A DNA stretch of 64,000 nucleotides from Escherichia coli (GTDB lineage: Bacteria > Pseudomonadota > Gammaproteobacteria > Enterobacterales > Enterobacteriaceae), in NCBI RefSeq assembly GCF_030384885.1, contig NZ_CP128613.1; one strand, given 5' to 3'. Numbering within the stretch: the stretch's first letter is position 1; each line of letters starts with the position of its first letter. A program made the position numbers and the translations under genes. A model generated the notes under the pieces. That model saw only the letters and a program-made list of their open reading frames with translations. It was not told where the DNA came from and ran no database searches. This document shows, one piece after another, positions 25,389-55,943 of this stretch.

Positions 25389-25465
<77 letters not shown>

Positions 25466-25474
25466 AATTCGAAA

Positions 25475-25501
25475 AGCCTGCTCAGCGAGCAGGCTTTTTT
25501 G
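25475..25501 (+). terminator. Rho-independent terminator after proK
   Basis: Hairpin agcctgctc-agcg-agcaggct followed by T6. Confidence 0.6.
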
Positions 25502-25790
25502 CATTTGAAGCCCATGAGGATGAGAACCTCCGGGGGCGGGGAGGTTCGACTCGAGCGAAGCGAGAGAACGTTGCGCCAGCAACGGCCCGCAGGGCGAGCC
25601 ACGAAGTGGCGAGTAATCCTCTATCACCGACCAATTTAGAAAAACCAGCCTACGGGCTGGTTTTTTGCTTTCTGCGACCTGAAGAGGATAAGAACCTCCG
25701 GGGGCAGGGAGGTTCGACTCGAGCAAAGCGAGAGAACGTTGTGGCAGCAACGGCCCGCAGTGGCGAGTAATCCTCTGGCACCGACCAAAA
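25502..25790 (+). repeat. Two tandem ~155-170 bp repeats, each ending in a copy of the proK 3' terminal 19 nt and containing a degenerate T-arm-like segment
   Basis: aatcctctatcaccgacca at 25615..25633 is identical to the tRNA 3' end (25447..25465); aatcctctggcaccgacca at 25769..25787 has 2 mismatches; gggaggttcgactcgagc occurs in both units. Confidence 0.6.
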
Positions 25791-28057: not shown

Positions 28058-28238
<181 letters not shown>

Positions 28239-33914: not shown

Positions 33915-33984
33915 AGAGAGAAAACCCCCGCACGTTGCAGATATTCACCTGACAACATCACGGGGGCTAATCTTGAACCTAGAC
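33915..33984 (-). ncRNA. rdlD: Rdl-like antisense RNA (copy 1), approximate ends
   Basis: Minus-strand gtctaggttcaagattagcccccgtgatgttgtcaggtgaatatctgcaacgtgcgggggttttctctctcc with terminal hairpin cccccgc/gcggggg plus U-run, upstream of ldr ORF; boundaries estimated. Confidence 0.45.
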
Positions 33985-34032
33985 CACTCAAGAATAGCCG
34001 CGAAACGTTGTCATTACAACACAGGCGGCTAT

Positions 34033-34140
34033 ATGACGCTCGCAGAACTGGGCATGGCCTTCTGGCATGATTTAGCGGCTCCGGTCATTGCTGGCATTCT
34101 TGCCAGCATGATCGTGAACTGGCTGAATAAGCGGAAGTAA
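34033..34140 (+). CDS. ldrD: Ldr-family type I toxin peptide (35 aa), copy 1
   Basis: MTLAELGMAFWHDLAAPVIAGILASMIVNWLNKRK. Confidence 0.85.
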   Translation: MTLAELGMAFWHDLAAPVIAGILASMIVNWLNKRK

Positions 34141-34190
34141 CGTGTCAGACGGGCGTCAGGCTGCCGTAATGGCAATTTGCGCCCGGACCA

Positions 34191-34223
34191 GGCCGCAGGG
34201 ATAAAACTCTGCGGCCTTTTTCG
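34191..34223 (+). terminator. Rho-independent terminator after ldr copy 1
   Basis: ggccgcag-ggataaaact-ctgcggcc followed by T5. Confidence 0.5.
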
Positions 34224-34397
34224 TAAGAAAAATGCAACGGTTGCAAGCGGATAATATTCTGCGGAATGCGCAGCACAGAGTGAAGAAGTGATGGATTCCG
34301 GAACAGAAAAACAGTCGTAGAATCAGCGGCAAGCCGGAAGGGTTCCGGTGAGGCGCAATGTTGCGGGGGCTTAATCCCTGGTGGCATTGGTTGCTGG

Positions 34398-34467
34398 AGA
34401 GAGAAAACCCCCGCACGTTGCAGGTATGCACCTGACAACATCACGGGGGCTAATCTTGAACCCAAAC
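34398..34467 (-). ncRNA. Rdl-like antisense RNA (copy 2), approximate ends
   Basis: Duplicate of copy 1 offset by 483 bp with a few substitutions. Confidence 0.4.
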
Positions 34468-34515
34468 AACTCAAGAATAGCCGCGAAACGTTGTCATTAC
34501 AACAGAGGCGGCTAT

Positions 34516-34623
34516 ATGACGCTCGCAGAACTGGGCATGGCCTTCTGGCATGATTTAGCGGCTCCGGTCATTGCTGGCATTCTTGCCAGTCTGATCGTGA
34601 ACTCGCTGAATAAGCGGAAGTAA
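34516..34623 (+). CDS. Ldr-family type I toxin peptide (35 aa), copy 2 (variant)
   Basis: MTLAELGMAFWHDLAAPVIAGILASLIVNSLNKRK; differs from copy 1 at two positions (M26L, W30S). Confidence 0.8.
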   Translation: MTLAELGMAFWHDLAAPVIAGILASLIVNSLNKRK

Positions 34624-34709: not shown

Positions 34710-36389
34710 TTATTGCGGGTAAGGCACCCAGTCGCCGCCGTTCAGGCGAACGTACGGTTTATCCTGGTATTGAATAACTACTGCATTTGAGTTCTCGGAG
34801 ACCGGTGCTGTTTGTGGCAACCCACTGGTGAGTTTTTTCCAGTCAACATTGTCTTCGGTGAAAATCTTACCATCAAGAACGCGAACCACCAGATCGGAGA
34901 TAGCCAGGAAGCTGCTCGGTTGGTTGATGACAATCGGTGCCCCCTGATGTGGTGCCTTCATGCCGAAGAATTTCACCCCAACGGGGACGTCTGTGATAGA
35001 CGGGCTAGGGATATCACGTAGGCCAGATACCTGCATTCTGTCGCCCTTCAGCGCGCCACCGTGTTCCGGCACCACTACCACCATCACTTTACGACCCGAT
35101 TTCTCCAGTTCAGTAAAGAAGGCGTCCAGCTCATCAAAGAATTTCTGCGCTCGCGCTTTGTAATCCGCTGTTTTGCTGACGCCCGGATAATGGTTGCCGT
35201 CATGCAGTGGAAGCGTGTTGTAGAACGTGGCACTACGGCTGTTTTTATCTTTTTCGGTAACGTCCAGCCAGCGGTTAAGCACGGCGGTATCGTCATAAAC
35301 CGGCGAACCATCAAAGCCCAACAAAATAACCGGCAGATTTGTTTGATCCATCAATTCGGTCTGCATGCCGCCATTTTCGCGAACTTCTTTCAAAAAACCG
35401 CCGAACTGGCCGTTATGTCCCATCATCAGGTGCTGGGTAAAGCCCAGTTTCGACAGGTTATCAAACAGATAGCAGTCGTTATTTGCCGGTTGATACAGAT
35501 TAGTGTGCGAAGTCTGCCCGCAGCTGGCGCGCAGTAAACGGATCGCTGCCGGGCCACTGTAGGAGGTGGCGGAGTTAAAGTTCTTGAACTCAATATCGAA
35601 ATGCGACCACAGCGGATGCGACATCAACCCGGCGGCTTCAATATCCGACCAGGAAAGCGAACAGATATTAATCACCAGTAGTTCAAATGGCTGAGCATCA
35701 GCGGGCAGCGAAGACGGGAAGGTCGATTTACGTTTCGCCTCCGCGTTATAGAAATTATTCAGCCAGGCGTTAAGGTTCGCCGTTGTTGGCGGTGCAGTTT
35801 GTGCGGGCATATCACCCACTACCGGTGCGCCACCCGTCGCCGCAACGGTTGCCGCTGCGTTACCACCCGTCGTTGTTACAGTGGTCGTCGGTTGACCGGC
35901 AGGCCACAAGGAGAAACTTGGTCCCGCCAGGGTAAGTACGTTCAGCCATAGCAGAATGGCAACCACAAAAACGGTAATGCGAATCCATTGTGATAGGAAT
36001 AACCAGGCCACTAATAAAACAAAAATGGCCCCAATCATCTGCCAGTTAATAAAGCGTGTGACAAGGTCGATTAAATAATCGGTACTGAACCCCGCCACCT
36101 GCGAACCCTGGCTCATTATGCTTTCCGGGCCAGGCAACCAGGTGTCATGCCAGAACAAAGCAAAGCCGATCGGCAGGGCAATCCAGTGGCGTAAGCGATG
36201 CAGGCTGTAGCGCGGAATGGGCATCAGCAGAAACGCGGCAAACACCAGATTGAGGAGCGGATGGAAGTTAAGATATCCCGCCCACAACAGGCCGAACTTA
36301 ACCAGAAAATAGAAGTTCCAGCCGGAAAGGCCGCGCCAGTATTGCCAGAGGGAAGAAGGCATGGCGGTATTTTGCGTAAATTGAGTCAT
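34710..36389 (-). CDS. bcsG: Cellulose biosynthesis protein BcsG (phosphoethanolamine transferase for pEtN-cellulose)
   Basis: 559 aa; N-terminal membrane helices plus periplasmic alkaline-phosphatase-like domain; last gene of bcsEFG. Confidence 0.95.
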
Positions 36390-36577
36390 TTTTTGGTTGC
36401 CCTGGCTTTTTCCGTGCGGCGTAACGTCCCGGCCGGTTTAACATAACGAGGTTTAGCAAAGAACAAACGTAAGGTGTCGCGAATGCGTCGCAAAGAGTGC
36501 CGCGCCAGATAGCCCAGCGGGAAAAATATCAGTGCGCAAACGACAATAATTTCAATGATATCGCTGATGGTCATCAT
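36386..36577 (-). CDS. bcsF: Cellulose biosynthesis protein BcsF (small membrane protein)
   Basis: 63 aa single-helix ORF; overlaps bcsE stop and bcsG start. Confidence 0.85.
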
Positions 36578-38145
36578 GATGAGCGCTCCACAGTATCATC
36601 TAACAGTCGCATTGGTTCTGGTATTCTTCGCCAGTGGCGACCATCGTGCTCGGCATTGATGACCGGTTTAGAACTTTGCGTTAAAGGCAGCGGCATGCCC
36701 CATTGTTCTGGAGCAAGCAGGCGCATCTGCACCAGCTCGGCACTGATTTGATCATCTTCAAACCAGACCATACGGTTTGAGAAAATGTCGCCAGTCGGCA
36801 ATGGGAAAATATGATTCAACGCGGTATCCAGATCGTTAATCCGACAGAATGAGAGAAACAGCACCAGCCGATTACCGCCAATGGTCATGATATCGCCGGT
36901 ACGGTTAGGGCGACACAGCGTCAGGGCTTGCTCAACGCGGATACCCGGTACCGGACGTAGGGCAACCAGAACGCCTTTACCATGTGCAGGCAAGAGAGGG
37001 TTATTCATCATGTTGTTAACGGCATTACAGAACACATCCCACTTCTGGAAACCACGTAGTTTGAGCGGCTGGGTCATTGACAGCAAGGTAGTGATATCTT
37101 CCGGCACATAGCGACTAAACTTCTGCCCTTGCACGCTTTCGATCATCGTCAGACAGCGGGAGAGTGGCGCATTCCACGGGATAACCATATTTGCACCGCA
37201 GGCCAATAACAAACGTTCATCGGTGGCGCGCAAGCTTGCGGTATTTTCCCGTACGAGGATTTTCATCGCACTACCGCGCTGGCGACGCAGAGTATGAATG
37301 CTGCGGGCCAGTGGCTCGATTTGCGCATTTTGCTGTAAAGAAAAGACCACCGTTGCCGCCTGAGCGGTACGGGCTTCATTGAACAGAATTTCGTTATTGT
37401 TGAACAGTTGCCAGTGTTCCGATAGCGGCGGCGCACCTTCCAGTACAGCAACATTACTCAGAATGCGTTTTTCGTCGCTGCGTGGTTGGATCTCCGCCTC
37501 TTCGCTTTGAACTAATGTCCAGATACCTTTTTGTTGCTGAACGCTAAGCTGCTGACGGGCGCTGACCCCTTTTTCGTTGCACCAGAAGGCAATATCCAGC
37601 AAATGTTGGTCGCCCTGAAAACGCAAACTGGCAAGACCAAAAAGTGAACGGTATTCCTCAAGCAACAATGAAAATTGTTTATCGTTATTATTTCCGGGAT
37701 TAATTACCAAAAGCGAACAATGGTTTAACCTGCTCCATTTATTCATTTTATCCAACCATGAGCGAAGCCGCTCGGCAGGAATGTTTTGCCATGCGTTATT
37801 TGCGCAAACAAGAATAAAAAGGTAATTATTGGGAACAATAGAACACTGCAAATCACGGGCCAAATAGTATAGACCTTTTTCATGATTTAGCATTGAAAAT
37901 AATTTTATTTTTTCCGGCCCTTGAGAATCATCTAATTGAAAGATTTTCGCCGGATCGCTGTCCATGCTAATGACCGCGACGTGTGCGGTTTCAGCCTGGG
38001 ATGCAATTGTTTGATTCGCCAGACTGATAGCATCTTCATGGCGATCGACGTTAAACCACCAGACGCCGCCTGCTGGCATATGTCGCAGCTCATCCCATAA
38101 TGATGAGATACCGATAGAGAATACAGGGTCCACAATGTCCCTCAT
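36574..38145 (-). CDS. bcsE: Cellulose biosynthesis protein BcsE (c-di-GMP binding, GIL domain)
   Basis: 523 aa; divergent from bcsR. Confidence 0.95.
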
Positions 38146-38416
38146 GTCACCATTTTGTCTGATTATCAGTTTACTAGCGAAAGCTAAGAAATAAACCTAC
38201 CATTGAAATTAAAACTTATCAGATTTAGCATGTGAATCAATTTAGCAGGTCACAAGACGTGTGATTTTAGTCTTTTCGTTTTTAACTTTTTTTGTTGCGT
38301 AACGGAAAGTCAAAAAGTGAGCAAATTCCCGTCTCGCCGTAAACAATAAACCGGCGAAATGCTCACGGTTAGAATTGTCTCATGAACGGTGCGGTTATTT
38401 CATAGGGATCAAGCAA

Positions 38417-38605
38417 ATGAATAACAATGAACCAGATACTCTGCCTGATCCCGCGATAGGCTATATCTTCCAGAATGATATTTTGGCGTTAAAGCAGGCG
38501 TTTTCACTGCCTGATATTGATTATGCCGATATTTCCCAACGCGAACAGTTGGCCGCGGCATTAAAACGCTGGCCGTTGCTGGCAGAGTTTGCGCAACAAA
38601 AGTAG
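38417..38605 (+). CDS. bcsR: Cellulose biosynthesis regulator BcsR
   Basis: ORF 38375..38605; start at MNNNEPDTLPD gives 62 aa. Confidence 0.85.
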   Translation: MNNNEPDTLPDPAIGYIFQNDILALKQAFSLPDIDYADISQREQLAAALKRWPLLAEFAQQK

Positions 38606-38616: not shown

Positions 38617-39369
38617 ATGGCCGTACTGGGATTGCAGGGGGTGCGGGGAGGCGTGGGAACAACAACCATCACTGCCGCATTAGCCTGGTCATTACAAATG
38701 TTGGGAGAAGATGTCCTGGTGGTCGATGCCTGCCCGGACAACTTGTTGCGCCTGTCATTTAACGTTGATTTTACCCACCGTCAGGGCTGGGCCAGAGCCA
38801 TGCTGGACGGTCAGGACTGGCGTGACGCCGGGTTGCGCTATACCTCGCAACTCGATTTGCTGCCTTTTGGTCAGTTATCCATTGAAGAACAAGAAAATCC
38901 ACAGCACTGGCAAACCCGGCTGAGCGATATTTGCTCCGGCTTACAGCAACTAAAAGCCAGCGGGCGTTACCAGTGGATTTTAATCGACTTACCGCGTGAT
39001 GCCTCGCAGATAACCCACCAGCTGCTGAGTTTGTGCGATCACTCGCTGGCAATCGTCAATGTGGATGCCAACTGCCATATCCGGCTGCATCAGCAGGCGC
39101 TGCCGGATGGCGCGCATATTTTGATTAATGACTTCCGCATTGGCAGTCAGGTTCAGGACGATATTTACCAGCTTTGGTTGCAAAGCCAGCGCCGATTACT
39201 GCCAATGCTCATTCATCGTGATGAAGCGATGGCTCAATGCCTGGCGGCTAAGCAACCAGTCGGTGAATACCGCAGTGATGCGCTGGCGGCTGAAGAGATA
39301 CTGACGCTGGCTAACTGGTGCCTGTTGAACTATTCCGGGCTGAAAACGCCAGTCGGGAGTGCATCATGA
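38617..39369 (+). CDS. bcsQ: Cellulose biosynthesis protein BcsQ (ParA/MinD-like ATPase), intact reading frame
   Basis: 250 aa uninterrupted ORF MAVLGLQGVRGGVGTTTITAALAW; codon 6 is TTG (Leu). Confidence 0.9.
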   Translation: MAVLGLQGVRGGVGTTTITAALAWSLQMLGEDVLVVDACPDNLLRLSFNVDFTHRQGWARAMLDGQDWRDAGLRYTSQLDLLPFGQLSIEEQENPQHWQTRLSDICSGLQQLKASGRYQWILIDLPRDASQITHQLLSLCDHSLAIVNVDANCHIRLHQQALPDGAHILINDFRIGSQVQDDIYQLWLQSQRRLLPMLIHRDEAMAQCLAAKQPVGEYRSDALAAEEILTLANWCLLNYSGLKTPVGSAS

Positions 39370-41984
39370 GTATCCTGACCCGGTGGTTGCTTATCCCGCC
39401 GGTCAACGCGCGGCTTATCGGGCGTTATCGCGATTATCGTCGTCACGGCGCGTCGGCTTTCAGCGCGACGCTCGGCTGTTTTTGGTTGATCCTGGCCTGG
39501 ATTTTTATTCCGCTGGAGCACCCGCGCTGGCAGCGTATTCGCGCAGAACATAAAAACCTGTATCCGCATATCAACGCCTCGCGTCCGCGTCCGCTGGACC
39601 CGGTCCGTTATCTCATTCAAACATGCTGGTTACTGATCGGTACATCGCGCAAAGAAACGCCGAAACCGCGCAGGCGGACATTTTCAGGTCTGCAGAATAT
39701 TCGTGGACGTTACCATCAATGGATGAACGAGCTGCCTGAGCGCGTTAGCCATAAAACACAGCATCTCGATGAGAAAAAAGAACTCGGCCATTTGAGCGCC
39801 GGGGCGCGGCGGTTGATCCTCGGTATCATCGTCACCTTCTCGCTGATTCTGGCGTTAATCTGCGTTACCCAGCCGTTTAACCCGCTGGCGCAGTTTATCT
39901 TCCTGATGCTGCTGTGGGGTGTAGCGCTGATCGTACGGCGGATGCCGGGGCGCTTCTCGGCGCTAATGTTGATTGTGCTGTCGCTGACCGTTTCTTGCCG
40001 TTATATCTGGTGGCGCTACACCTCTACGCTGAACTGGGACGATCCGGTCAGTCTGGTGTGCGGGCTTATACTGCTGTTCGCTGAAACGTACGCGTGGATT
40101 GTGCTGGTGCTCGGCTACTTCCAGGTGGTATGGCCGCTGAATCGTCAGCCAGTACCGTTGCCGAAAGATATGTCGCTGTGGCCGTCGGTAGATATCTTTG
40201 TCCCGACTTACAACGAAGATCTCAACGTGGTGAAAAATACGATTTACGCCTCGCTGGGTATCGACTGGCCGAAAGACAAGCTGAACATCTGGATCCTCGA
40301 TGACGGCGGCAGGGAAGAGTTTCGCCAGTTTGCACAAAACGTGGGGGTGAAATATATCGCCCGTACCACTCATGAACATGCGAAAGCAGGCAACATCAAC
40401 AATGCGCTGAAATATGCCAAAGGCGAGTTCGTGTCGATTTTCGACTGCGACCACGTGCCGACGCGCTCATTCCTGCAAATGACCATGGGCTGGTTCCTGA
40501 AAGAAAAACAGTTGGCGATGATGCAGACGCCGCACCACTTCTTCTCACCGGATCCGTTTGAACGTAACTTGGGGCGTTTTCGTAAAACGCCAAACGAAGG
40601 CACGCTGTTTTATGGTCTGGTGCAGGACGGCAATGATATGTGGGATGCCACTTTCTTCTGCGGTTCCTGTGCGGTGATTCGTCGTAAGCCGCTGGATGAG
40701 ATTGGCGGCATTGCTGTCGAAACGGTAACCGAAGATGCGCATACTTCTCTGCGTTTGCACCGTCGTGGCTACACCTCTGCATATATGCGTATTCCGCAGG
40801 CGGCGGGGCTGGCGACCGAAAGTCTGTCGGCGCATATCGGTCAGCGTATTCGCTGGGCGCGCGGGATGGTGCAAATCTTCCGTCTCGATAACCCGCTCAC
40901 CGGTAAAGGGCTGAAGTTTGCTCAGCGGCTGTGCTACGTCAACGCCATGTTCCATTTCTTGTCGGGCATTCCACGACTGATCTTTCTGACTGCGCCGCTG
41001 GCGTTCCTGCTGCTGCATGCCTACATCATCTACGCGCCTGCGTTAATGATCGCTCTGTTTGTGCTGCCGCATATGATTCACGCCAGCCTGACCAACTCGA
41101 AGATTCAGGGTAAATATCGCCACTCTTTCTGGAGCGAAATCTACGAAACGGTACTGGCGTGGTATATCGCACCACCGACGCTGGTGGCGCTGATTAACCC
41201 GCACAAAGGCAAATTTAACGTCACCGCCAAAGGTGGACTGGTGGAAGAAGAGTACGTCGACTGGGTGATCTCACGGCCCTACATTTTCCTGGTATTGCTC
41301 AACCTGGTCGGTATTGCGGTCGGTATCTGGCGTTACTTCTACGGCCCGCCAACCGAGATGCTCACTGTCATCGTCAGTATGGTGTGGGTGTTCTACAACC
41401 TGATTATTCTCGGTGGTGCGGTAGCGGTATCGGTAGAAAGCAAACAGGTTCGCCGATCGCACCGCGTGGAGATGACGATGCCCGCGGCAATTGCCCGCGA
41501 AGATGGTCACCTCTTCTCGTGTACCGTTCAGGATTTCTCCGACGGTGGTTTGGGGATCAAGATCAACGGTCAGGCACAGATTCTGGAAGGGCAGAAAGTG
41601 AATCTGTTGCTTAAACGCGGTCAGCAAGAATACGTCTTCCCGGCCCAGGTGGCGCGCGTGATGGGTAATGAAGTTGGGCTGAAATTAATGCCGCTCACCA
41701 CCCAGCAACATATCGATTTTGTGCAGTGTACGTTTGCCCGTGCGGATACATGGGCGCTCTGGCAGGACAGCTATCCGGAAGATAAGCCGCTGGAAAGTCT
41801 GCTGGATATTCTGAAGCTCGGCTTCCGTGGCTACCGCCATCTGGCGGAGTTTGCGCCTTCTTCGGTGAAGGGCATATTCCGTGTGCTGACTTCTCTGGTT
41901 TCCTGGGTTGTATCGTTTATTCCGCGCCGCCCGGCGCGGAGCGAAACGGCACAACCATCGGATCAGGCTTTGGCTCAACAATGA
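39366..41984 (+). CDS. bcsA: Cellulose synthase catalytic subunit (GT2, PilZ domain)
   Basis: ORF 39318..41984; start at MSILTRWLLIPPVNARL gives 872 aa; overlaps bcsQ stop (ATGA). Confidence 0.95.
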   Translation: MSILTRWLLIPPVNARLIGRYRDYRRHGASAFSATLGCFWLILAWIFIPLEHPRWQRIRAEHKNLYPHINASRPRPLDPVRYLIQTCWLLIGTSRKETPKPRRRTFSGLQNIRGRYHQWMNELPERVSHKTQHLDEKKELGHLSAGARRLILGIIVTFSLILALICVTQPFNPLAQFIFLMLLWGVALIVRRMPGRFSALMLIVLSLTVSCRYIWWRYTSTLNWDDPVSLVCGLILLFAETYAWIVLVLGYFQVVWPLNRQPVPLPKDMSLWPSVDIFVPTYNEDLNVVKNTIYASLGIDWPKDKLNIWILDDGGREEFRQFAQNVGVKYIARTTHEHAKAGNINNALKYAKGEFVSIFDCDHVPTRSFLQMTMGWFLKEKQLAMMQTPHHFFSPDPFERNLGRFRKTPNEGTLFYGLVQDGNDMWDATFFCGSCAVIRRKPLDEIGGIAVETVTEDAHTSLRLHRRGYTSAYMRIPQAAGLATESLSAHIGQRIRWARGMVQIFRLDNPLTGKGLKFAQRLCYVNAMFHFLSGIPRLIFLTAPLAFLLLHAYIIYAPALMIALFVLPHMIHASLTNSKIQGKYRHSFWSEIYETVLAWYIAPPTLVALINPHKGKFNVTAKGGLVEEEYVDWVISRPYIFLVLLNLVGIAVGIWRYFYGPPTEMLTVIVSMVWVFYNLIILGGAVAVSVESKQVRRSHRVEMTMPAAIAREDGHLFSCTVQDFSDGGLGIKINGQAQILEGQKVNLLLKRGQQEYVFPAQVARVMGNEVGLKLMPLTTQQHIDFVQCTFARADTWALWQDSYPEDKPLESLLDILKLGFRGYRHLAEFAPSSVKGIFRVLTSLVSWVVSFIPRRPARSETAQPSDQALAQQ

Positions 41985-41994
41985 TGATAACGCG

Positions 41995-44334
41995 ATGAAA
42001 AGAAAACTATTCTGGATTTGTGCAGTGGCTATGGGGATGAGTGCGTTCCCCTCTTTCATGACGCAGGCGACGCCAGCAACGCAACCACTGATCAATGCTG
42101 AGCCAGCTGTAGCCGCCCAGACGGAACAAAATCCGCAGGTGGGGCAAGTGATGCCGGGCGTGCAGGGCGCTAATGCCCCCATCGTGGCGCAGAACGGTCC
42201 TTCGCGTGATGTGAAGCTGACCTTTGCGCAAATTGCGCCACCGCCGGGCAGCATGGTGCTACGTGGCATTAACCCGAACGGCAGCATTGAGTTTGGTATG
42301 CGCAGCGATGAAGTGGTGACGAAGGCGATGCTCAACCTCGAATACACGCCATCGCCATCGTTACTGCCTGTCCAGTCGCAGTTAAAGGTTTATCTCAATG
42401 ATGAACTGATGGGCGTGCTGCCAGTGACCAAAGAACAGTTGGGTAAAAAAACGCTGGCACAAATGCCAATTAACCCACTGTTTATTACCGACTTCAACCG
42501 TGTGCGGCTGGAGTTTGTCGGTCATTATCAGGACGTGTGCGAAAACCCGGCCAGCACCACGCTTTGGCTGGATGTTGGGCGGAGCAGTGGACTGGATCTG
42601 ACCTATCAGACCCTGAATGTGAAGAATGATCTGTCACACTTCCCGGTACCATTCTTTGACCCGCGTGATAACCGCACCAACACCTTGCCGATGGTCTTTG
42701 CGGGTGCGCCGGATGTTGGGCTGCAACAAGCATCTGCCATTGTCGCCTCGTGGTTTGGTTCGCGTTCTGGCTGGCGTGGGCAGAACTTCCCGGTGCTCTA
42801 TAACCAACTGCCGGATCGCAATGCCATCGTTTTTGCCACTAATGACAAACGCCCGGACTTCCTGCGCGATCATCCGGCGGTAAAAGCCCCGGTGATTGAG
42901 ATGATCAACCATCCACAGAATCCTTACGTCAAACTGCTGGTGGTCTTTGGTCGTGACGACAAAGACCTGTTGCAGGCAGCAAAAGGTATCGCTCAGGGTA
43001 ACATTCTGTTCCGTGGTGAAAGCGTGGTAGTGAATGAAGTAAAACCGCTGCTACCGCGTAAGCCGTACGATGCGCCGAACTGGGTGCGTACCGATCGCCC
43101 GGTCACCTTTGGTGAACTAAAAACCTATGAAGAACAGTTACAATCCAGCGGTCTTGAGCCAGCAGCGATTAACGTTTCGCTAAACCTGCCGCCGGATCTC
43201 TACCTGATGCGCAGTACCGGCATTGATATGGATATCAACTATCGCTACACCATGCCGCCGGTGAAAGACAGTTCGCGGATGGATATCAGCCTGAATAACC
43301 AGTTCCTGCAATCCTTCAACCTGAGCAGTAAACAGGAGGCGAACCGCCTGCTGCTGCGTATTCCGGTATTACAAGGTTTGCTGGATGGCAAAACGGATGT
43401 CTCTATTCCGGCGCTGAAACTGGGCGCGACCAACCAGTTGCGGTTCGACTTTGAGTATATGAACCCGATGCCGGGCGGTTCGGTGGATAACTGTATTACC
43501 TTCCAGCCGGTGCAGAATCATGTGGTGATTGGTGACGACTCCACCATCGACTTCTCGAAGTATTACCACTTCATCCCGATGCCGGATCTACGCGCCTTTG
43601 CTAACGCGGGCTTCCCGTTCAGCCGGATGGCGGATCTGTCACAAACCATCACCGTGATGCCGAAAGCGCCTAACGAAGCACAGATGGAAACCTTGCTGAA
43701 TACCGTTGGCTTTATCGGTGCGCAGACGGGCTTCCCGGCGATTAACCTGACGGTGACCGATGATGGCAGCACCATTCAGGGCAAAGATGCCGACATCATG
43801 ATCATCGGTGGTATCCCGGACAAACTGAAAGACGACAAGCAGATCGACCTGTTGGTGCAGGCGACCGAAAGCTGGGTGAAAACGCCGATGCGCCAGACCC
43901 CGTTCCCCGGCATTGTGCCGGACGAGAGCGATCGCGCGGCAGAAACTCAATCAACGCTGACCTCTTCCGGTGCGATGGCAGCGGTGATTGGCTTCCAGTC
44001 GCCGTATAACGACCAGCGTAGCGTGATTGCGCTGCTGGCAGATAGCCCACGCGGTTATGAAATGCTTAACGATGCGGTGAACGATAGCGGCAAACGCGCC
44101 ACCATGTTCGGCTCGGTCGCGGTGATCCGCGAGTCCGGTATCAATAGCCTGCGTGTTGGCGACGTCTATTACGTTGGCCATCTGCCGTGGTTCGAACGCT
44201 TATGGTATGCGCTGGCAAACCATCCGATTCTGCTGGCAGTGCTGGCGGCAATCAGCGTCGTGCTGCTGGCCTGGGTACTGTGGCGTTTGCTGCGTATTAT
44301 CAGCCGTCGTCGTCTTAACCCGGATAACGAGTAA
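41995..44334 (+). CDS. bcsB: Cellulose synthase periplasmic subunit BcsB
   Basis: ORF 41908..44334; start at MKRKLFWICAVAMGMSA (signal peptide) gives 779 aa. Confidence 0.95.
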   Translation: MKRKLFWICAVAMGMSAFPSFMTQATPATQPLINAEPAVAAQTEQNPQVGQVMPGVQGANAPIVAQNGPSRDVKLTFAQIAPPPGSMVLRGINPNGSIEFGMRSDEVVTKAMLNLEYTPSPSLLPVQSQLKVYLNDELMGVLPVTKEQLGKKTLAQMPINPLFITDFNRVRLEFVGHYQDVCENPASTTLWLDVGRSSGLDLTYQTLNVKNDLSHFPVPFFDPRDNRTNTLPMVFAGAPDVGLQQASAIVASWFGSRSGWRGQNFPVLYNQLPDRNAIVFATNDKRPDFLRDHPAVKAPVIEMINHPQNPYVKLLVVFGRDDKDLLQAAKGIAQGNILFRGESVVVNEVKPLLPRKPYDAPNWVRTDRPVTFGELKTYEEQLQSSGLEPAAINVSLNLPPDLYLMRSTGIDMDINYRYTMPPVKDSSRMDISLNNQFLQSFNLSSKQEANRLLLRIPVLQGLLDGKTDVSIPALKLGATNQLRFDFEYMNPMPGGSVDNCITFQPVQNHVVIGDDSTIDFSKYYHFIPMPDLRAFANAGFPFSRMADLSQTITVMPKAPNEAQMETLLNTVGFIGAQTGFPAINLTVTDDGSTIQGKDADIMIIGGIPDKLKDDKQIDLLVQATESWVKTPMRQTPFPGIVPDESDRAAETQSTLTSSGAMAAVIGFQSPYNDQRSVIALLADSPRGYEMLNDAVNDSGKRATMFGSVAVIRESGINSLRVGDVYYVGHLPWFERLWYALANHPILLAVLAAISVVLLAWVLWRLLRIISRRRLNPDNE

Positions 44335-44340: not shown

Positions 44341-45447
44341 ATGAATGTGTTGCGTAGTGGACTCGTGACGATGCTGCTGCTGGCTGCCTTTAGTGTTCAG
44401 GCAGCCTGCAACTGGCCTGCCTGGGAGCAGTTCAAAAAGGATTACATCAGTCAGGAAGGGCGCGTCATCGACCCCAGCGACGCGCGCAAAATCACCACCT
44501 CCGAAGGGCAAAGTTACGGCATGTTCTTTGCCCTGGCGGCTAACGACCGTGCAGCTTTCGATAATATTCTCGACTGGACGCAGAACAATCTCGCTCAGGG
44601 TTCTTTAAAAGAACATTTGCCCGCCTGGCTGTGGGGCAAGAAAGAGAACAGTAAGTGGGAAGTGCTGGACAGCAATTCGGCCTCTGATGGTGATGTCTGG
44701 ATGGCCTGGTCACTGCTGGAGGCGGGGCGTTTGTGGAAAGAGCAGCGTTATACCGACATCGGCAGCGCGTTGTTAAAACGTATTGCGCGGGAGGAAGTGG
44801 TGACGGTGCTTGGGCTGGGTTCCATGTTGTTGCCGGGCAAAGTGGGATTTGCTGAGGATAACAGCTGGCGTTTTAACCCCAGCTACCTGCCGCCGACGCT
44901 GGCGCAGTATTTCACCCGCTTTGGCGCGCCGTGGACTACGCTGCGCGAAACCAATCAACGTTTATTGCTGGAAACCGCCCCGAAAGGCTTTTCGCCAGAC
45001 TGGGTGCGCTATGAGAAAGACAAAGGCTGGCAGCTAAAAGCCGAAAAAACATTGATCAGCAGCTACGACGCTATCCGTGTTTACATGTGGGTAGGCATGA
45101 TGCCTGACAGCGATCCGCAAAAAGCGCGGATGCTCAACCGGTTTAAACCGATGGCGACATTCACCGAGAAAAACGGCTATCCGCCGGAAAAAGTCGATGT
45201 GGCTACGGGGAAAGCGCAGGGTAAAGGACCGGTCGGTTTTTCTGCCGCCATGCTGCCCTTTTTACAAAACCGCGATGCACAGGCCGTTCAGCGCCAGCGC
45301 GTGGCCGATAACTTTCCCGGCAGCGATGCCTATTACAACTATGTGCTGACCCTGTTTGGACAAGGCTGGGATCAACACCGTTTCCGCTTCTCGACAAAAG
45401 GTGAGTTATTACCTGACTGGGGCCAGGAATGCGCAAATTCACACTAA
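44341..45447 (+). CDS. bcsZ: Endo-1,4-beta-glucanase (GH8) BcsZ
   Basis: ATG at 44341 ([21 protein letters not shown] signal peptide), 368 aa. Confidence 0.95.
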
Positions 45448-48400
45448 ACATATTCACGCTTTCCCTCGGTCTGGCCGTCATTCCGATGGTTGAGGCAGCA
45501 CCAACCGCTCAGCAACAGTTGCTGGAGCAAGTTCGGTTAGGCGAAGCGACCCATCGTGAAGACCTGGTGCAACAGTCGTTGTATCGGCTGGAACTTATTG
45601 ATCCGAATAACCCGGACGTCGTTGCCGCCCGTTTCCGTTCTCTGTTACGTCAGGGCGATATTGATGGCGCGCAAAAACAGCTCGATCGGCTGTCGCAGTT
45701 AGCGCCGAGTTCAAATGCGTATAAATCGTCGCGGACCACAATGTTACTTTCTACGCCGGATGGTCGTCAGGCACTGCAACAGGCAAGATTGCAGGCGACT
45801 ACCGGTCATGCAGAAGAAGCTGTGGCGAGTTACAACAAGCTGTTCAACGGTGCGCCGCCAGAAGGTGATATTGCCGTCGAGTACTGGAGTACGGTGGCGA
45901 AAATTCCGGCTCGCCGTGGCGAAGCGATTAATCAGCTAAAACGCATTAATGCGGATACGCCGGGCAATACGGGCCTGCAAAACAATCTGGCGCTATTGCT
46001 GTTTAGTAGCGATCGGCGTGATGAAGGTTTTGCTGTACTGGAGCAGATGGCGAAATCGAACGCCGGGCGCGAGGGAGCCTCTAAAATCTGGTACGGGCAG
46101 ATTAAAGACATGCCTGTCAGCGATGCCAGCGTGCAGGCGCTGAAAAAATATCTCTCTATCTTTAGCGATGGCGACAGCGTAGCTGCTGCGCAATCGCAAC
46201 TGGCAGAACAGCAAAAACAGCTGGCCGACCCTGCTTTCCGCGCTCGTGCGCAAGGTTTAGCGGCAGTGGACTCTGGCATGGCGGGTAAAGCCATTCCCGA
46301 ACTACAACAGGCAGTGCGGGCGAACCCGAAAGACAGTGAGGCACTGGGGGCGCTGGGCCAGGCGTATTCTCAGAAAGGCGATCGCGCCAATGCGGTGGCG
46401 AATCTGGAAAAAGCCCTCGCACTGGACCCGCACAGCAGCAACAACGACAAATGGAACAGTCTGCTGAAAGTAAACCGCTACTGGCTGGCGATCCAGCAGG
46501 GTGATGCCGCGCTGAAAGCCAATAATCCTGACCGGGCAGAACGCCTGTTCCAGCAGGCGCGTAACGTTGATAATACTGACAGCTATGCAGTGTTGGGGCT
46601 GGGCGATGTGGCGATGGCGCGAAAAGATTATTCCGCCGCCGAACGCTATTACCAGCAGACCTTGCGTATGGACAGCGGCAACACTAACGCCGTGCGCGGG
46701 CTGGCGAATATTTACCGCCAGCAGTCGCCAGAAAAAGCAGAAGCGTTTATCGCCTCGCTCTCTGCCAGCCAGCGGCGCAGCATTGATGATATCGAACGTA
46801 GCCTGCAAAACGATCGTCTGGCACAGCAGGCAGAGGCACTGGAAAACCAGGGCAAATGGGCGCAGGCAGCAGCACTTCAGCGGCAACGACTGGCACTGGA
46901 CCCCGGCAGTGTATGGATTACTTACCGACTTTCGCAGGATCTCTGGCAGGCCGGACAACGCAGCCAGGCTGATACATTAATGCGCAATCTGGCACAGCAG
47001 AAGCCGAACGACCCGGAGCAGGTTTACGCTTACGGGCTGTACCTCTCAGGTCACGACCAGGACAGAGCGGCACTGGCTCATATCAACAGCCTGCCGCGCG
47101 CGCAGTGGAACAGCAATATTCAGGAGCTGGTTAATCGGCTGCAAAGCGACCAGGTGCTGGAAACCGCTAATCGCCTGCGAGAAAACGGTAAAGAGGCAGA
47201 AGCAGAAGCGATGCTGCGCCAGCAACCGCCTTCCTCGCGTATTGATCTGACGCTGGCTGACTGGGCGCAACAACGACGTGATTACGCTGCTGCCCGTGCT
47301 GCATATCAGAATGTCCTGACGCGGGAGCCAACTAACGCTGATGCCATTCTTGGCCTGACGGAAGTGGATATCGCTGCCGGTGACAAAGCGGCGGCACGTA
47401 GCCAACTGGCGAAACTGCCTGCCACCGATAACGCCTCCCTGAACACACAGCGGCGCGTGGCGCTGGCGCAGGCGCAGCTTGGCGATACCGCAGCGGCGCA
47501 GCAGACATTTAACAAGCTGATCCCGCAGGCAAAATCTCAGCCACCGTCGATGGAAAGCGCGATGGTACTGCGCGACGGTGCGAAGTTTGAAGCGCAGGCG
47601 GGCGATCCAAAGCAGGCGCTGGAAACCTACAAAGACGCGATGGTCGCATCCGGTGTGACCACGACGCGTCCGCAGGATAACGACACCTTTACCCGGCTGA
47701 CCCGTAACGACGAGAAAGATGACTGGCTGAAACGCGGCGTGCGCAGCGATGCAGCGGACCTCTATCGCCAGCAGGATCTTAACGTCACCCTCGAGCACGA
47801 TTACTGGGGGTCGAGCGGCACCGGTGGTTACTCCGATCTGAAAGCGCACACCACCATGTTGCAGGTGGACGCACCGTATTCTGACGGGCGGATGTTCTTT
47901 CGCAGTGATTTCGTCAATATGAACGTCGGCAGTTTCTCCACTAATGCCGATGGCAAATGGGATGACAACTGGGGCACCTGTACATTACAGGACTGTAGCG
48001 GCAACCGCAGCCAGTCGGATTCCGGTGCCAGCGTGGCGGTCGGCTGGCGAAATGACGTCTGGAGCTGGGATATCGGCACCACGCCGATGGGCTTCAACGT
48101 GGTGGATGTGGTCGGCGGCATCAGTTACAGTGATGATATCGGGCCGCTGGGTTACACCGTTAACGCCCATCGTCGGCCCATTTCCAGTTCTTTGCTGGCC
48201 TTTGGCGGGCAAAAAGACTCCCCGAGCAATACCGGGAAAAAATGGGGTGGCGTGCGTGCTGATGGCGTAGGACTAAGCCTGAGCTACGATAAAGGTGAAG
48301 CAAACGGCGTCTGGGCATCGCTTAGCGGCGACCAGTTAACCGGTAAAAATGTTGAAGATAACTGGCGTGTGCGCTGGATGACGGGCTATTACTATAAGGT

Positions 48401-48902
48401 CATCAACCAGAACAATCGCCGCGTGACAATCGGCCTGAACAACATGATCTGGCATTACGACAAAGACCTGAGTGGGTACTCACTCGGTCAGGGCGGTTAC
48501 TACAGCCCGCAGGAATACCTGTCGTTTGCCATTCCGGTGATGTGGCGTGAGCGGACAGAAAACTGGTCGTGGGAGCTGGGGGCGTCTGGTTCGTGGTCGC
48601 ATTCGCGCACCAAAACCATGCCGCGGTATCCGCTGATGAATCTGATCCCGACTGACTGGCAGGAAGAAGCTGCGCGGCAATCCAACGATGGCGGCAGCAG
48701 TCAGGGCTTTGGCTATACGGCGCGGGCATTACTTGAGCGTCGCGTCACATCCAACTGGTTTGTCGGTACGGCAATTGATATCCAGCAGGCGAAAGATTAC
48801 GCGCCCAGCCATTTCCTGCTCTACGTACGTTATTCCGCCGCCGGATGGCAGGGTGACATGGATTTACCGCCGCAGCCGCTGATACCTTACGCCGACTGGT
48901 AA
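45429..48902 (+). CDS. bcsC: Cellulose synthase outer-membrane subunit BcsC (TPR repeats plus beta-barrel)
   Basis: 1157 aa; signal peptide; TPR-rich N-terminal region; start overlaps bcsZ 3' end. Confidence 0.95.
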
Positions 48903-48983: not shown

Positions 48984-50972
48984 TTGCGCGTAAGTCGCTC
49001 GTTAACAATCAAGCAGATGGCAATGGTGGCAGCCGTTGTCCTGGTGTTCGTTTTTATTTTTTGCACCGTTTTGCTGTTCCATCTGGTCCAGCAGAATCGC
49101 TATAACACGGCTACGCAACTGGAAAGCATTGCTCGCTCTGTCCGCGAACCCTTATCTTCTGCCATTTTGAAAGGCGATATTCCCGAAGCGGAAGCTATTC
49201 TTGCCAGCATTAAACCGGCAGGCGTGGTCAGCCGTGCCGATGTGGTGCTGCCTAACCAGTTCCAGGCGCTGCGTAAAAGTTTTATTCCAGAGCGTCCGGT
49301 GCCGGTAATGGTTACTCGCATGTTTGAGCTACCGGTGCAAATCTCGCTGGGCGTTTACTCGCTGGAACGTCCGGCAAACCCGCAGCCAATTGCCTATCTG
49401 GTGCTACAGGCGGATTCCTTCCGCATGTATAAGTTCGTGATGAGCACCCTCTCAACGTTAGTGACCATTTACTTACTTTTGTCGTTAATATTGACGGTGG
49501 CGATTAGCTGGTGCATTAACCGCCTGATTTTGCATCCGTTACGCAATATTGCTCGTGAACTTAACGCCATCCCAGCCCAGGAGCTTGTTGGTCACCAACT
49601 GGCATTACCACGTCTGCATCAGGACGATGAAATCGGTATGCTGGTGCGCAGTTACAACCTCAACCAGCAATTGCTGCAGCGCCATTATGAAGAACAGAAC
49701 GAAAATGCGATGCGCTTCCCGGTGTCGGATTTGCCGAACAAAGCCTTGCTGATGGAGATGCTGGAGCAGGTTGTCGCGCGTAAACAAACCACCGCGCTGA
49801 TGATTATCACCTGTGAAACCCTGCGTGATACTGCGGGCGTGCTGAAAGAGGCGCAACGAGAAATTCTGCTGCTGACGCTGGTGGAAAAACTCAAATCGGT
49901 ACTGTCGCCACGTATGATCCTCGCGCAAATTAGTGGTTATGACTTTGCTGTCATTGCCAACGGTGTACAGGAACCGTGGCATGCTATTACTTTAGGTCAG
50001 CAAGTGCTCACTATCATGAGCGAGCGCCTGCCGATTGAACGTATTCAACTTCGTCCGCACTGTAGCATTGGCGTGGCGATGTTCTACGGCGATCTCACCG
50101 CCGAACAGCTTTACAGTCGCGCTATTTCTGCGGCATTTACCGCTCGCCATAAAGGTAAGAATCAGATTCAGTTCTTTGATCCGCAGCAGATGGAAGCCGC
50201 CCAACAGCGGTTGACGGAAGAGAGCGATATCCTTAATGCACTGGAAAATCATCAGTTTGCGATTTGGTTACAGCCACAGGTCGAGATGACCAGCGGTAAA
50301 CTGGTCAGTGCGGAAGTGTTACTGCGTATCCAGCAACCGGATGGCAGTTGGGATCTGCCGGATGGCTTAATCGATCGCATTGAGTGCTGTGGGCTGATGG
50401 TTACCGTCGGTCACTGGGTGCTGGAAGAGTCCTGTCGACTGCTGGCTGCCTGGCAAGAGCGCGGCATTATGTTGCCCTTGTCGGTAAACCTCTCAGCGCT
50501 GCAACTGATGCACCCGAATATGGTAGCGGATATGCTGGAACTGTTAACCCGCTATCGCATTCAGCCGGGAACACTGATTCTGGAAGTGACAGAAAGCCGA
50601 CGTATTGACGACCCTCATGCAGCGGTGGCAATCCTCCGCCCGTTGCGTAATGCCGGCGTTCGGGTGGCGCTGGATGATTTCGGCATGGGCTACGCAGGGC
50701 TGCGTCAGCTGCAGCATATGAAATCGTTGCCAATCGACGTGTTAAAAATCGACAAAATGTTTGTTGAAGGCTTGCCGGAAGATAGCAGCATGATTGCTGC
50801 AATTATCATGTTGGCGCAAAGCCTGAACTTACAAATGATTGCCGAAGGCGTGGAGACTGAAGCACAACGCGACTGGCTGGCAAAAGCGGGCGTTGGTATT
50901 GCCCAGGGCTTCCTTTTTGCTCGCCCACTCCCTATTGAAATCTTCGAAGAGAGTTACCTGGAAGAAAAGTAG
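48984..50972 (+). CDS. pdeK: c-di-GMP phosphodiesterase PdeK (HAMP-GGDEF-EAL membrane protein)
   Basis: 662 aa from TTG with strong GGGGGGAG RBS; alternative ATG 31-37 nt downstream lacks RBS; EAL domain in C-terminal half. Confidence 0.88.
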
Positions 50973-51118: not shown

Positions 51119-52441
<1,323 letters not shown>

Positions 52442-52660: not shown

Positions 52661-54157
52661 ATGCAGGGCACAAAAATTCGACTTTTAGCGGGCGGTTTGC
52701 TGATGATGGCCACTGCTGGCTATGTGCAGGCAGATGCGCTCCAGCCTGATCCAGCATGGCAACAGGGGACGCTTTCCAACGGTTTACAGTGGCAAGTGCT
52801 GACCACGCCCCAGCGTCCCAGCGATCGCGTTGAAATTCGCCTGCTGGTTAATACCGGTTCGCTCGCCGAAAGTACACAACAGAGCGGTTACAGTCACGCC
52901 ATCCCTCGTATTGCGTTAACGCAAAGCGGTGGCCTTGAAGCAGCACAGGCGCGTTCATTGTGGCAGCAGGGGATCGACCCTAAACGCCCGATGCCGCCGG
53001 TAATTGTCTCTTATGACACCACGCTGTTTAATCTGAGTTTGCCCAATAACCGTAACGACTTGCTGAAAGAAGCGCTCTCTTATCTGGCAAATGCCACTGG
53101 CAAACTGACTATCACGCCAGAAACCATCAACCACGCGCTGCAAAGTCAGGACATGGTGGCAACCTGGCCTGCCGATACTAAAGAGGGCTGGTGGCGCTAT
53201 CGTCTGAAAGGATCAACCTTGTTAGGTCACGATCCTGCCGATCCGCTGAAACAACCCGTTGAAGCGGAAAAGATTAAAGATTTCTATCAGAAATGGTACA
53301 CCCCGGATGCAATGACGCTGCTGGTGGTGGGAAACGTGGATGCGCGCTCGGTTGTCGACCAAATCAACAAAACGTTTGGCGAACTGAAAGGCAAACGTGA
53401 AACACCGGCTCCGGTGCCGACGCTTTCTCCGCTGCGTCCTGAAGCGGTGAGTATTATGACCGATGCGGTACGTCAGGACCGGTTATCTATCATGTGGGAT
53501 ACGCCGTGGCAGCCTATTCGTGAATCAGCCGCACTGCTGCGCTACTGGCGTGCGGACCTGGCCCGTGAGGCGCTGTTCTGGCACGTTCAGCAAGCGTTAA
53601 GCACCAGTAACAGCAAAGACATCGGTCTTGGATTTGACTGCCGTGTGCTGTATCTGCGTGCGCAGTGTGCCATCAACATCGAATCACCAAACGACAAGCT
53701 GAACAGCAACCTTAATTTGGTAGCGCGTGAGCTGGCAAAGGTTCGCGATAAAGGTCTGCCGGAAGAAGAGTTCAATGCGTTAGTGGCGCAAAAGAAACTG
53801 GAGCTGCAGAAACTGTTTGCCGCCTATGCGCGAGCTGATACCGATATTTTGATGGGTCAGCGGATGCGTTCGTTGCAAAATCAGGTCGTTGATATCGCGC
53901 CGGAGCAATATCAGAAACTGCGCCAGGACTTCCTTAACAGCCTGACGGTGGAGATGTTAAATCAGGATCTGCGTCAGCAGTTGTCGAACGATATGGCGTT
54001 AATTCTTCTGCAGCCGAAAGGCGAGCCAGAATTTAACATGAAAGCGTTGCAGGCGGCCTGGGATCAAATCATGGCCCCATCTACTACTGCTGCCACAACC
54101 TCAGTTGCCACGGATGACGTACATCCTGAAGTGACGGATATTCCACCCGCACAGTAA
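52661..54157 (+). CDS. yhjJ: Periplasmic zinc-peptidase-like protein YhjJ (M16 family-like)
   Basis: 498 aa with signal peptide; synteny after dctA. Confidence 0.9.
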   Translation: MQGTKIRLLAGGLLMMATAGYVQADALQPDPAWQQGTLSNGLQWQVLTTPQRPSDRVEIRLLVNTGSLAESTQQSGYSHAIPRIALTQSGGLEAAQARSLWQQGIDPKRPMPPVIVSYDTTLFNLSLPNNRNDLLKEALSYLANATGKLTITPETINHALQSQDMVATWPADTKEGWWRYRLKGSTLLGHDPADPLKQPVEAEKIKDFYQKWYTPDAMTLLVVGNVDARSVVDQINKTFGELKGKRETPAPVPTLSPLRPEAVSIMTDAVRQDRLSIMWDTPWQPIRESAALLRYWRADLAREALFWHVQQALSTSNSKDIGLGFDCRVLYLRAQCAINIESPNDKLNSNLNLVARELAKVRDKGLPEEEFNALVAQKKLELQKLFAAYARADTDILMGQRMRSLQNQVVDIAPEQYQKLRQDFLNSLTVEMLNQDLRQQLSNDMALILLQPKGEPEFNMKALQAAWDQIMAPSTTAATTSVATDDVHPEVTDIPPAQ

Positions 54158-54360
54158 TAAATCACCCGGCAGCGTTTCTTCTGCGCTGCCGGGATTAACG
54201 GTAATAAATTAGTTACCGTGATATAACCGCAGATATTTTTCCTGGCACGGCGGTAGCGCGCAGATAACCATTCATTATTAAAATAAACTTACCGTAGAGT
54301 GGGTTTAATTATTTATTAGCTGAATAAATTATACCGGTGCCTCCTGGAAGGAGTGAGTTT

Positions 54361-54786
54361 ATGCTTGTGTTAAAATCACAATCGATTGGATTCAGGATTT
54401 CCACAGCTTATTTATCTTTAACATATACAGAGTCTGATGGCGTCAAGATTAAAGTAGATGCTCTGGAGTTAATATCAACAGAGAGAGATTATGTTCAAAT
54501 TGAACTGGTCTTCACTACTGTTGCTGAAGTTAAGTGTGCTACCGTCAATTTTTATGAAGCCAACTATAACAATATTGTTATTAAGAAGGTTGATGGTGAA
54601 AATCTGGACTCCGGTATATATCAAGTAATGAATTCTGTACCGCTTGAAGAAAAAGAGAAATTATATGATCCTAAAAAACGGTTGAAGTTAAAACATTATA
54701 TTATAGCAGGTTATGATAGTTATGTTGAGATTTTAGCTACTGGTTTTAGCTGTATACGATGCCAGGCAATAGATGGTGTTAAATAA
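54361..54786 (+). CDS. Hypothetical protein (141 aa), first gene of AT-rich accessory cassette; no signal peptide or TM segment
   Basis: ATG with AGGAG RBS 7 nt upstream; about 33 percent GC; stop overlaps next start (TAATG). Confidence 0.6.
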   Translation: MLVLKSQSIGFRISTAYLSLTYTESDGVKIKVDALELISTERDYVQIELVFTTVAEVKCATVNFYEANYNNIVIKKVDGENLDSGIYQVMNSVPLEEKEKLYDPKKRLKLKHYIIAGYDSYVEILATGFSCIRCQAIDGVK

Positions 54787-55040
54787 TGGCCTATCATATA
54801 GAAATATTGAAAATTGAAGAAACTGATAAAGTAGTAAAATATGAATTTGGACCTACATCTTCTGACTATTGTAGATCTGATTACGGCGAATTCGTGATAG
54901 ATAAAAGAACGGGTGAGATGACATTAGTCAGAATGGTTAAAAACGATTCAGCTAATAAATTTTATTTGCGAGCGAGTTTTAAGATTCTGACCTGTTGGCG
55001 AAAGGGCTATTTGCCAAAAAATGAGGAATGGGCTTCTTAA
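54786..55040 (+). CDS. Hypothetical small protein (84 aa), translationally coupled to upstream ORF
   Basis: ATG overlaps upstream stop by 1 nt; AT-rich; no recognisable motif. Confidence 0.55.
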   Translation: MAYHIEILKIEETDKVVKYEFGPTSSDYCRSDYGEFVIDKRTGEMTLVRMVKNDSANKFYLRASFKILTCWRKGYLPKNEEWAS

Positions 55041-55139
55041 TAAGTAACTTTGCAGAATAAGTGAATTTTCCCATTTTTTTGGGGGCAGTCGTTGATTCTT
55101 ACACAGTTTATGTTATGGGTGCCAAATTTAGGATAGGCT

Positions 55140-55619
55140 ATGGATTTTCACTTGGATATTTTGCTCCCTACACAATTCGCTCCAGAGGAACTAGATCTAC
55201 AAGAGGTTATGATTCACTGGGGTGGGGAAACCTTTCATCGCGACCCTCCGGTATACGCCTGGTGTAATCATCATCTTTTGCAGAGATGCAATCTACCGAT
55301 TACTTATGGCCCACCTTTAGATGAGCACATAGACTTTAATGAATATCATGTTTACAACTTCAATGGTTCTTTAGTCGATGACCTGGAAATGGCTGTGAAT
55401 AAAGGAAAGGATATTTCAACCAATCCTATAATTAAATTTATTAACAACCTGGTTAGCAAAAATTACGGGGGGTGGGTAATCTTGTCATTAGATGATGAAA
55501 AAATAGAAGTGATTAAAAATATAAGCTTCCAGTATTCTTTTCTATCATTATTAGTTGATGGACTAAAATGGGAAAGACCGCATGGGGTGGCAATATTATA
55601 TAATTCACACTTAATTTAA
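55140..55619 (+). CDS. Hypothetical protein (159 aa), cytoplasmic-type
   Basis: ATG with AGGATAGG RBS; AT-rich; no TM. Confidence 0.6.
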   Translation: MDFHLDILLPTQFAPEELDLQEVMIHWGGETFHRDPPVYAWCNHHLLQRCNLPITYGPPLDEHIDFNEYHVYNFNGSLVDDLEMAVNKGKDISTNPIIKFINNLVSKNYGGWVILSLDDEKIEVIKNISFQYSFLSLLVDGLKWERPHGVAILYNSHLI

Positions 55620-55640
55620 TTAATTAATGAATGGAAACAT

Positions 55641-55943
55641 ATGTATCGTGTAAAGGTTGTTTGGCTTACAGAAAATGAAGGTGGCAGAAGGAGCGCACCT
55701 CCTATCGGTAGATATTATCCCGTCTCCAGGTTTCCAGAGGAGAAAACTGACTGGCAAAATAATGCATGGAGTGTTGTTTTTGAATTGGAAAAACCTAATG
55801 TAACCGATGGACGTATCGTTTCAATGGGGTGCGTTCAGTTCCTTTTCGATACCGCCCCTGAACAATGGATGACTAAGTACGAGGCATTTGAGATCTACGA
55901 AGGACCAAGAAAAGTCGCAGATGTATTATTGATAGGGAATTAA
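55641..55943 (+). CDS. Hypothetical small protein (100 aa) with apparent similarity to the C-terminal beta-barrel (domain 3) of EF-Tu-type translational GTPases
   Basis: By-eye alignment to E. coli EF-Tu domain 3: VKVVWLTENEGGRR vs EVYILSKDEGGRH, RYYPV vs GYRPQ, C-terminal AFEIYEGPRKVADVLL vs RFAIREGGRTVGAGVV. Confidence 0.55.
   Translation: MYRVKVVWLTENEGGRRSAPPIGRYYPVSRFPEEKTDWQNNAWSVVFELEKPNVTDGRIVSMGCVQFLFDTAPEQWMTKYEAFEIYEGPRKVADVLLIGN

Follow-up and report, generated by a model that had tools for sequence, protein, structure and literature searches.

The window, a stretch of 64,000 nucleotides of Escherichia coli DNA (contig NZ_CP128613.1), contains nine bcs genes that are organized in two divergent operons, bcsRQABZC and bcsEFG, with the control region of both in between (Table 1). 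Each of the nine encoded proteins scored above the cut-off value of its NCBIfam equivalog model, and the matches spanned the full length of the Bcs proteins as well as of PdeH and PdeK. In addition, BcsA matched over its full length the cryo-EM chains in PDB entries 9FMV, 7LBY and 9B8V, and BcsG, with matches to 9B8V and 6PCZ, likewise aligned with the cryo-EM chains from end to end. The E. coli Bcs structures (BcsRQ in 6YBU and 6YAR; the macrocomplex in 9FMV, 9FNN and 9FP0; also 9B8V and 7LBY) represent constructs from producer strains.

Table 1. Genes, RNAs and other features located in the window. Differences are amino-acid differences from the K-12 protein.
Feature	Position	Strand	Description	Family model: bits (cut-off)	Differences
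sok	13331-13482		antitoxin RNA of hok/sok module
cspA 5'-UTR	13766-14193	-	thermoregulator
tRNA	25389-25462		Pro in the annotation of the nearest genome
ES036	28081-28123	-	sRNA
rdlD	33919-33984	-	RNA, Rfam RF01813
ldr	34033-34140	+	ORF
rdlD	34402-34467	-	RNA, Rfam RF01813
ldr	34516-34623	+	ORF
bcsG	34710-36389	-	pEtN transferase, 559 aa	TIGR03368: 818 (410)	3
bcsF	36386-36577	-	63 aa	TIGR03493: 116 (56)	0
bcsE	36574-38145	-	c-di-GMP-binding protein, 523 aa	NF011619: 1182.7 (929)	6
bcsE-bcsR region	38146-38416	.	divergent intergenic (control) region, 271 nt
bcsR (yhjR)	38417-38605	+	first gene of bcsRQABZC, 62 aa	NF040717: 75.8 (46)	1
bcsQ	38617-39369	+	ATG start, 250 sense codons, TGA stop	NF007460: 539 (399); TIGR03371: 293.9 (157.85)	3 (incl. 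*6L)
bcsA	39366-41984	+	catalytic cellulose synthase, 872 aa	NF008558: 1791.6 (992)	8
bcsB	41995-44334	+	periplasmic synthase subunit, 779 aa	NF008325: 1386.9 (922)	8
bcsZ	44341-45447	+	periplasmic GH8 endoglucanase, 368 aa	NF008305: 592 (299)	5
bcsC	45429-48902	+	TPR and outer-membrane channel protein, 1157 aa	NF008520: 2199.7 (858)	11
pdeK (annotated hmsP)	48984-50972	+	662 aa, TTG start as in K-12	NF008807: 780.6 (733)	4
dctA	51155-52441	+	located by blastn with the K-12 gene
yhjJ	52661-54157	+	located by blastn with the K-12 gene
accessory island	54158-59806		5.6 kb, between yhjJ and kdgK
kdgK	59807-60736	-	located by blastn with the K-12 gene
pdeH (yhjH)	60967-61734	+	255 aa, intact	NF008617: 459.5 (190)	7
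yhjG	61805-63865	+	located by blastn with the K-12 gene

To compare the locus with that of K-12, we ran blastn with the K-12 genes dppB through yhjG, one by one, against the window. The alignments contained no gap openings and recovered every gene at full length, save for 7 nt at the end of kdgK, where the alignment stopped early at a terminal A309Q difference while the length of the ORF (930 nt) was that of K-12. For the genes from yhjV to yhjG, which were translated and compared, starts and stops were as in K-12. Gene order, gene lengths and overlaps of the bcs locus are likewise those of K-12 MG1655 and W3110, including a 19-nt overlap between bcsZ and bcsC. Neither the gapless alignments nor the translations, which were free of internal stops, revealed a hidden frameshift, stop or truncation between dppB and yhjG. 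The preliminary description of this DNA had listed bcsRQABZC and bcsEFG as intact and had named an overlooked frameshift or stop within the bcs genes as one event that could overturn this; the alignments and translations were searched for such a lesion, none was found, and the statement stands.

The same description had counted pdeK and pdeH as intact c-di-GMP genes adjacent to the locus. Both are intact, and pdeK, the product of which has been described to serve the cellulose synthase as a local sink for c-di-GMP (PMC7397504), indeed adjoins the operon, as it starts 81 nt 3' of bcsC. The adjacency does not hold for pdeH: its start lies 12,065 nt past the stop of bcsC, and the interval is occupied by pdeK, dctA, yhjJ, the accessory island and kdgK.

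The sixth codon of bcsQ

The bcsQ gene sits between bcsR and bcsA and shares an ATGA overlap with the latter (39366-39369), an arrangement that fits translational coupling. Its codon 6 (38632-38634) reads TTG and specifies Leu, whereas the same position in K-12 MG1655 (NC_000913.3) reads TAG. Accordingly, the opening codons are ATG GCC GTA CTG GGA TTG CAG in the window and ATG GCC GTA CTG GGA TAG CAG in MG1655; the wider 5' region reads ATGGCCGTACTGGGATTGCAG in the window versus ATGGCCGTACTGGGATAGCAG in K-12. The open 250-codon frame, its coordinates and the identity of codon 6, as given in the preliminary description, were confirmed on the sequence and its translation. The TAG of K-12, cited there as established knowledge, was found both in the MG1655 record, in which bcsQ (b3534) carries a pseudogene annotation, and in the literature (PMC7397504, PMC5944007). 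The window thus does not carry the K-12-type null allele of bcsQ.

Over the whole gene, bcsQ showed 97.2% nucleotide identity to its K-12 counterpart in blastn, with 21 nucleotide differences of which three alter the protein, the restored Leu (*6L) being one of these. The NF007460 equivalog model covered residues 1-250 of the 250. The N-terminus of the protein reads MAVLGLQGVRGGVGTTTITAA, and the P-loop GVRGGVGTTT (residues 8-17) is encoded 3' of codon 6. When compared with the crystallised BcsQ (PDB 6YBU / 6YAR), 246 of 250 residues were identical (98.4%) over the full length. The P-loop is common to both proteins and the four differing positions are all located elsewhere, the window having D32 for N, D172 for N, Q207 for E and A249 for K. 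Considering this degree of identity, BcsQ of the window would be predicted to bind ATP, form a complex with BcsR, localise to the pole and be required for cellulose secretion.

Conservation among E. coli genomes

The nine bcs genes showed between 95.5 and 100% nucleotide identity to those of K-12, bcsF being identical at the nucleotide level. Together, the nine Bcs proteins differ from K-12 at 45 amino-acid positions (0 to 11 per protein), the restored Leu of BcsQ included. The substitutions comprise S63F and P157L in BcsZ, E489N in BcsG, S236Q in BcsC and, outside the Bcs proteins, G599E in PdeK. According to the Nei-Gojobori method, the differences in the nine genes amounted to 388.5 synonymous and 46.5 non-synonymous ones, which yields a dN/dS of 0.034. 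A ratio this low implies strong purifying selection and thus that the genes are maintained.

We checked whether the residues directly involved in catalysis and c-di-GMP binding are preserved. BcsA has kept the catalytic GT-2 motifs DxD, TED and QxxRW (DCD at 360, TED at 455 and QRIRW at 493) as well as the c-di-GMP motifs RxxxR and DxSxxG of the PilZ domain (RRSHR at 696 and DFSDGG at 723). In BcsG, C243, S278, H396, E442 and H443 are all present; S278 is the nucleophile and the other four are the metal ligands. For BcsE, BcsZ and PdeH we used motif definitions from the structural literature, and recovered an RTGD motif at 415 in BcsE (the RxGD c-di-GMP site), E55 and D243 in BcsZ and an ELL motif at 48 in PdeH. 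With K-12 as the numbering reference, no substitution between the window and K-12 was located on any of the checked catalytic or c-di-GMP-binding residues. PdeK contains EVL at 444-446 and E624 in the numbering of the 662-aa protein, which is offset by +13 relative to the 649-aa numbering in which the EAL-domain motif has been described as E431/V432 and the catalytic Glu as E611 (PMC7397504).

The non-coding sequence has changed little. The spacers bcsR-bcsQ, bcsA-bcsB, bcsB-bcsZ, bcsC-pdeK and pdeK-dctA are identical to K-12, and the bcsE-bcsR region differs by three substitutions and by being 1 nt shorter (271 versus 272 nt). The aligner placed this gap in the last column, directly 5' of the start codon of bcsR (38400-38416); in the nearest complete genome, that of E. 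coli 2013C-4282, the region has the same length as in the window. A promoter scan of the region returned a single consensus-like site, which equals the number expected by chance, and a terminator scan returned two terminator-like sites, both within the coding sequence of bcsR.

Of the 5426 complete E. coli genomes, 5137 contained the 17.2-kb locus at a coverage of at least 80%. In the same 5426 genomes the state of codon 6 was surveyed by exact matching of a 40-nt probe centred on this codon. The TTG version was found in at least 4790 genomes and the TAG version in 349. All inspected carriers of TAG (the 40 best-ranked plus an even sample of 60, of the 349) were laboratory derivatives of K-12 or K-12 transconjugant recipients, among them J53, C600, DH5alpha, MC4100 and BW25113. 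TTG at codon 6 is the ancestral and majority state in E. coli, and the TAG of laboratory K-12 is the exception. A nonsense mutation in BcsQ has been reported to be common to ST167, ST617 and ST744 (PMC10881479). That this might be the K-12 allele, circulating in natural isolates of the ST10 complex, was rejected given that the inspected 100 of the 349 matches were all K-12-type strains; the nonsense mutation of the ST10 complex therefore probably affects a codon other than 6.

For each of the nine Bcs proteins, public collections already contain an identical sequence under its Bcs name. The number of contigs per protein ranges from 17 to at least 1000, and the less common alleles are those of BcsZ (17 contigs), BcsE (48) and BcsC (57). 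The draft assembly GCA_025828115.1 differs from the window by a single mismatch over 21,107 nt (34341-55447), a stretch that takes in bcsG and reaches the beginning of the island. The nearest complete genome, 2013C-4282 (NZ_CP027579.1), aligns to positions 18823-64000 without gaps and shares the gene content of the window, including the island and two copies of ldr. The two sequences are separated by 224 SNPs and no indels. The SNPs are strongly clustered in the interval from 20.6 to 46.7 kb (20600-46750), where they are densest in dppB-dppF, in bcsQ-bcsA and in the 5' part of bcsC; between 46.8 and 64 kb only three were counted, and positions 1-25000 of the window are 99.9% identical to 2013C-4282. 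On sequence grounds the clustering across the cellulose locus looks like patches of homologous recombination, and the clusters over bcsQ, bcsA and bcsC could reflect allele exchange at this locus.

Predicted cellulose competence and alternative readings

Given the above, the locus is very probably the standard wild-type cellulose secretion locus of E. coli, with the ancestral TTG and with bcsRQABZC and bcsEFG followed by pdeK, and should in itself form no obstacle to the production of pEtN-cellulose. The roles of BcsRQ, BcsA-BcsB, BcsG, BcsZ, BcsC and PdeK in the Bcs machine are established. In the strain at hand, the two genes that open the operon would thus provide BcsR and the MinD/ParA-like ATPase BcsQ that works with it, bcsA would be translationally coupled to bcsQ via the ATGA overlap, and BcsRQ would help to assemble BcsA-BcsB. 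Binding of c-di-GMP from DgcC to the PilZ domain of BcsA would then lead BcsA-BcsB to polymerise UDP-glucose, with PdeK acting as a local c-di-GMP sink. In the periplasm, BcsG, controlled by BcsE and BcsF, would add phosphoethanolamine to the glucan, which would be trimmed by BcsZ and exported by BcsC.

The relevance of codon 6 follows from work on K-12, which is cellulose-negative owing to the TAG at this position, a defect that has been explained either by the absence of BcsQ or by a polar effect on the downstream genes (PMC7397504, PMC5944007). Replacement of TAG by TTG at codon 6 alone renders K-12 W3110 proficient in pEtN-cellulose (strain AR3110; PMC7397504, PMC5944007). Because this single repair suffices, the other bcs alleles of K-12 must be functional. 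With regard to codon 6, the window resembles the repaired derivative AR3110, which makes pEtN-cellulose (PMC7397504), and not the unrepaired K-12.

The reading of bcsQ as a functional gene could in principle be undermined if the open frame were a chance ORF or an artefact of assembly. We found no point in support of this. A random frame of 250 codons would stay open with a probability of around 6e-6 ((61/64)^250), and the identity to K-12 bcsQ, the conserved synteny, the occurrence of the exact BcsQ protein on 584 contigs and the independent draft assembly that is identical across the locus bar one mismatch rule it out for practical purposes. Another concern is that open frames can mislead when a missense change silently inactivates one of the Bcs proteins. 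The 45 amino-acid differences from K-12 provide room for such a change, and alterations in BcsB, BcsC and BcsQ have been speculated to explain cellulose-negative strains (PMC5944007). Nevertheless, we consider it improbable, in view of the low dN/dS, the absence of substitutions on the checked catalytic or c-di-GMP-binding residues and the fact that each exact protein is present in many independent assemblies while the haplotype as a whole recurs; such recurrence would be unexpected of a decaying locus.

A further alternative concerns the phenotype only and is compatible with an intact genotype: the strain may be cellulose-negative, or conditionally positive, due to a change in csgD or its promoter, dgcC/adrA, mlrA, rpoS, dgcE or dgcM. 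Activation of the cellulose synthase specifically requires DgcC, which is under the control of the RpoS/MlrA/CsgD cascade (PMC7397504). Moreover, calcofluor fluorescence was observed for only one (1094) of six phylogroup-A strains, and BL21 and H10407, which possess all bcs genes with amino-acid changes only, gave no detectable calcofluor signal (PMC5944007). Against this, the window shows no sign of a regulatory defect, the changes in the bcsE-bcsR region being limited to those described above. We regard this alternative as a real though minority possibility. The csgD, dgcC, mlrA and rpoS genes are encoded outside the window, and actual production of pEtN-cellulose depends on their products. 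For this reason, the competence for pEtN-cellulose that was predicted in the preliminary description is not established from the window alone; the term is to be read solely as a statement that the bcs locus, as judged from its genes, would not stand in the way.

An intact bcsQ within an intact cellulose locus is already known and is what wild-type strains ordinarily have at this well-characterised locus. The result amounts to a non-K-12 E. coli in which the cellulose locus is not inactivated; it brings neither a new mechanism nor a new question. The intact state is the species default and no distinguishing feature of the strain. The overall significance of the result is low. Of the ST95 genomes, 55.3% have been reported to carry loss-of-function mutations in bcs, and such mutations affect more than 80% of the strains of 14 out of 76 common sequence types (PMC10881479). 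As the loss recurs in some pathogenic clones, an intact locus is modestly informative for strain typing, and its gene content would place the present strain in the matrix-capable group.

Accessory and RNA features of the flanks

The island between yhjJ and kdgK is lacking in K-12 and consists of two parts. The first (~54.3-56.5 kb) has a GC content of 33-39% and contains five small ORFs on the + strand (141, 84, 159, 100 and 177 aa), for which no match was obtained in NCBIfam, PADLOC or PHROGs; it occurs in around 170 of the 5426 complete genomes with 98.5% identity. The second (56.5-59.7 kb, - strand) encodes a putative lipoprotein of 664 aa that is weakly TPR-like and a protein of 402 aa with an N-terminal hydrophobic segment, and is found in around 30 complete genomes with 87% identity. 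Both parts together were recovered in only two of the 5426 genomes, with 100% identity in 2013C-4282. A search of NCBIfam, PADLOC, PHROGs, Pfam and PDB with the island proteins identified the 402-aa protein as DUF3142 (PF11340, E=3e-73) with a weak match to PDB 8Y6T, and yielded nothing else; a search of the literature on DUF3142 retrieved nothing functional. The island lies 5 kb from the cellulose locus. One could speculate that the pair represents an uncharacterised envelope- or polysaccharide-related accessory module that modifies matrix production in the few lineages possessing it, but we think this very unlikely.

On the other side of the locus, two tandem ldrD/rdlD type I toxin-antitoxin modules (33919-34623), around 483 nt apart, are found beside bcsG, where K-12 has a single one. 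The remaining RNA features are standard elements of the backbone and include sok, the 5'-UTR of cspA, ES036 and the tRNA, which is followed by two RtT repeats (25389-25787 for tRNA and repeats together).
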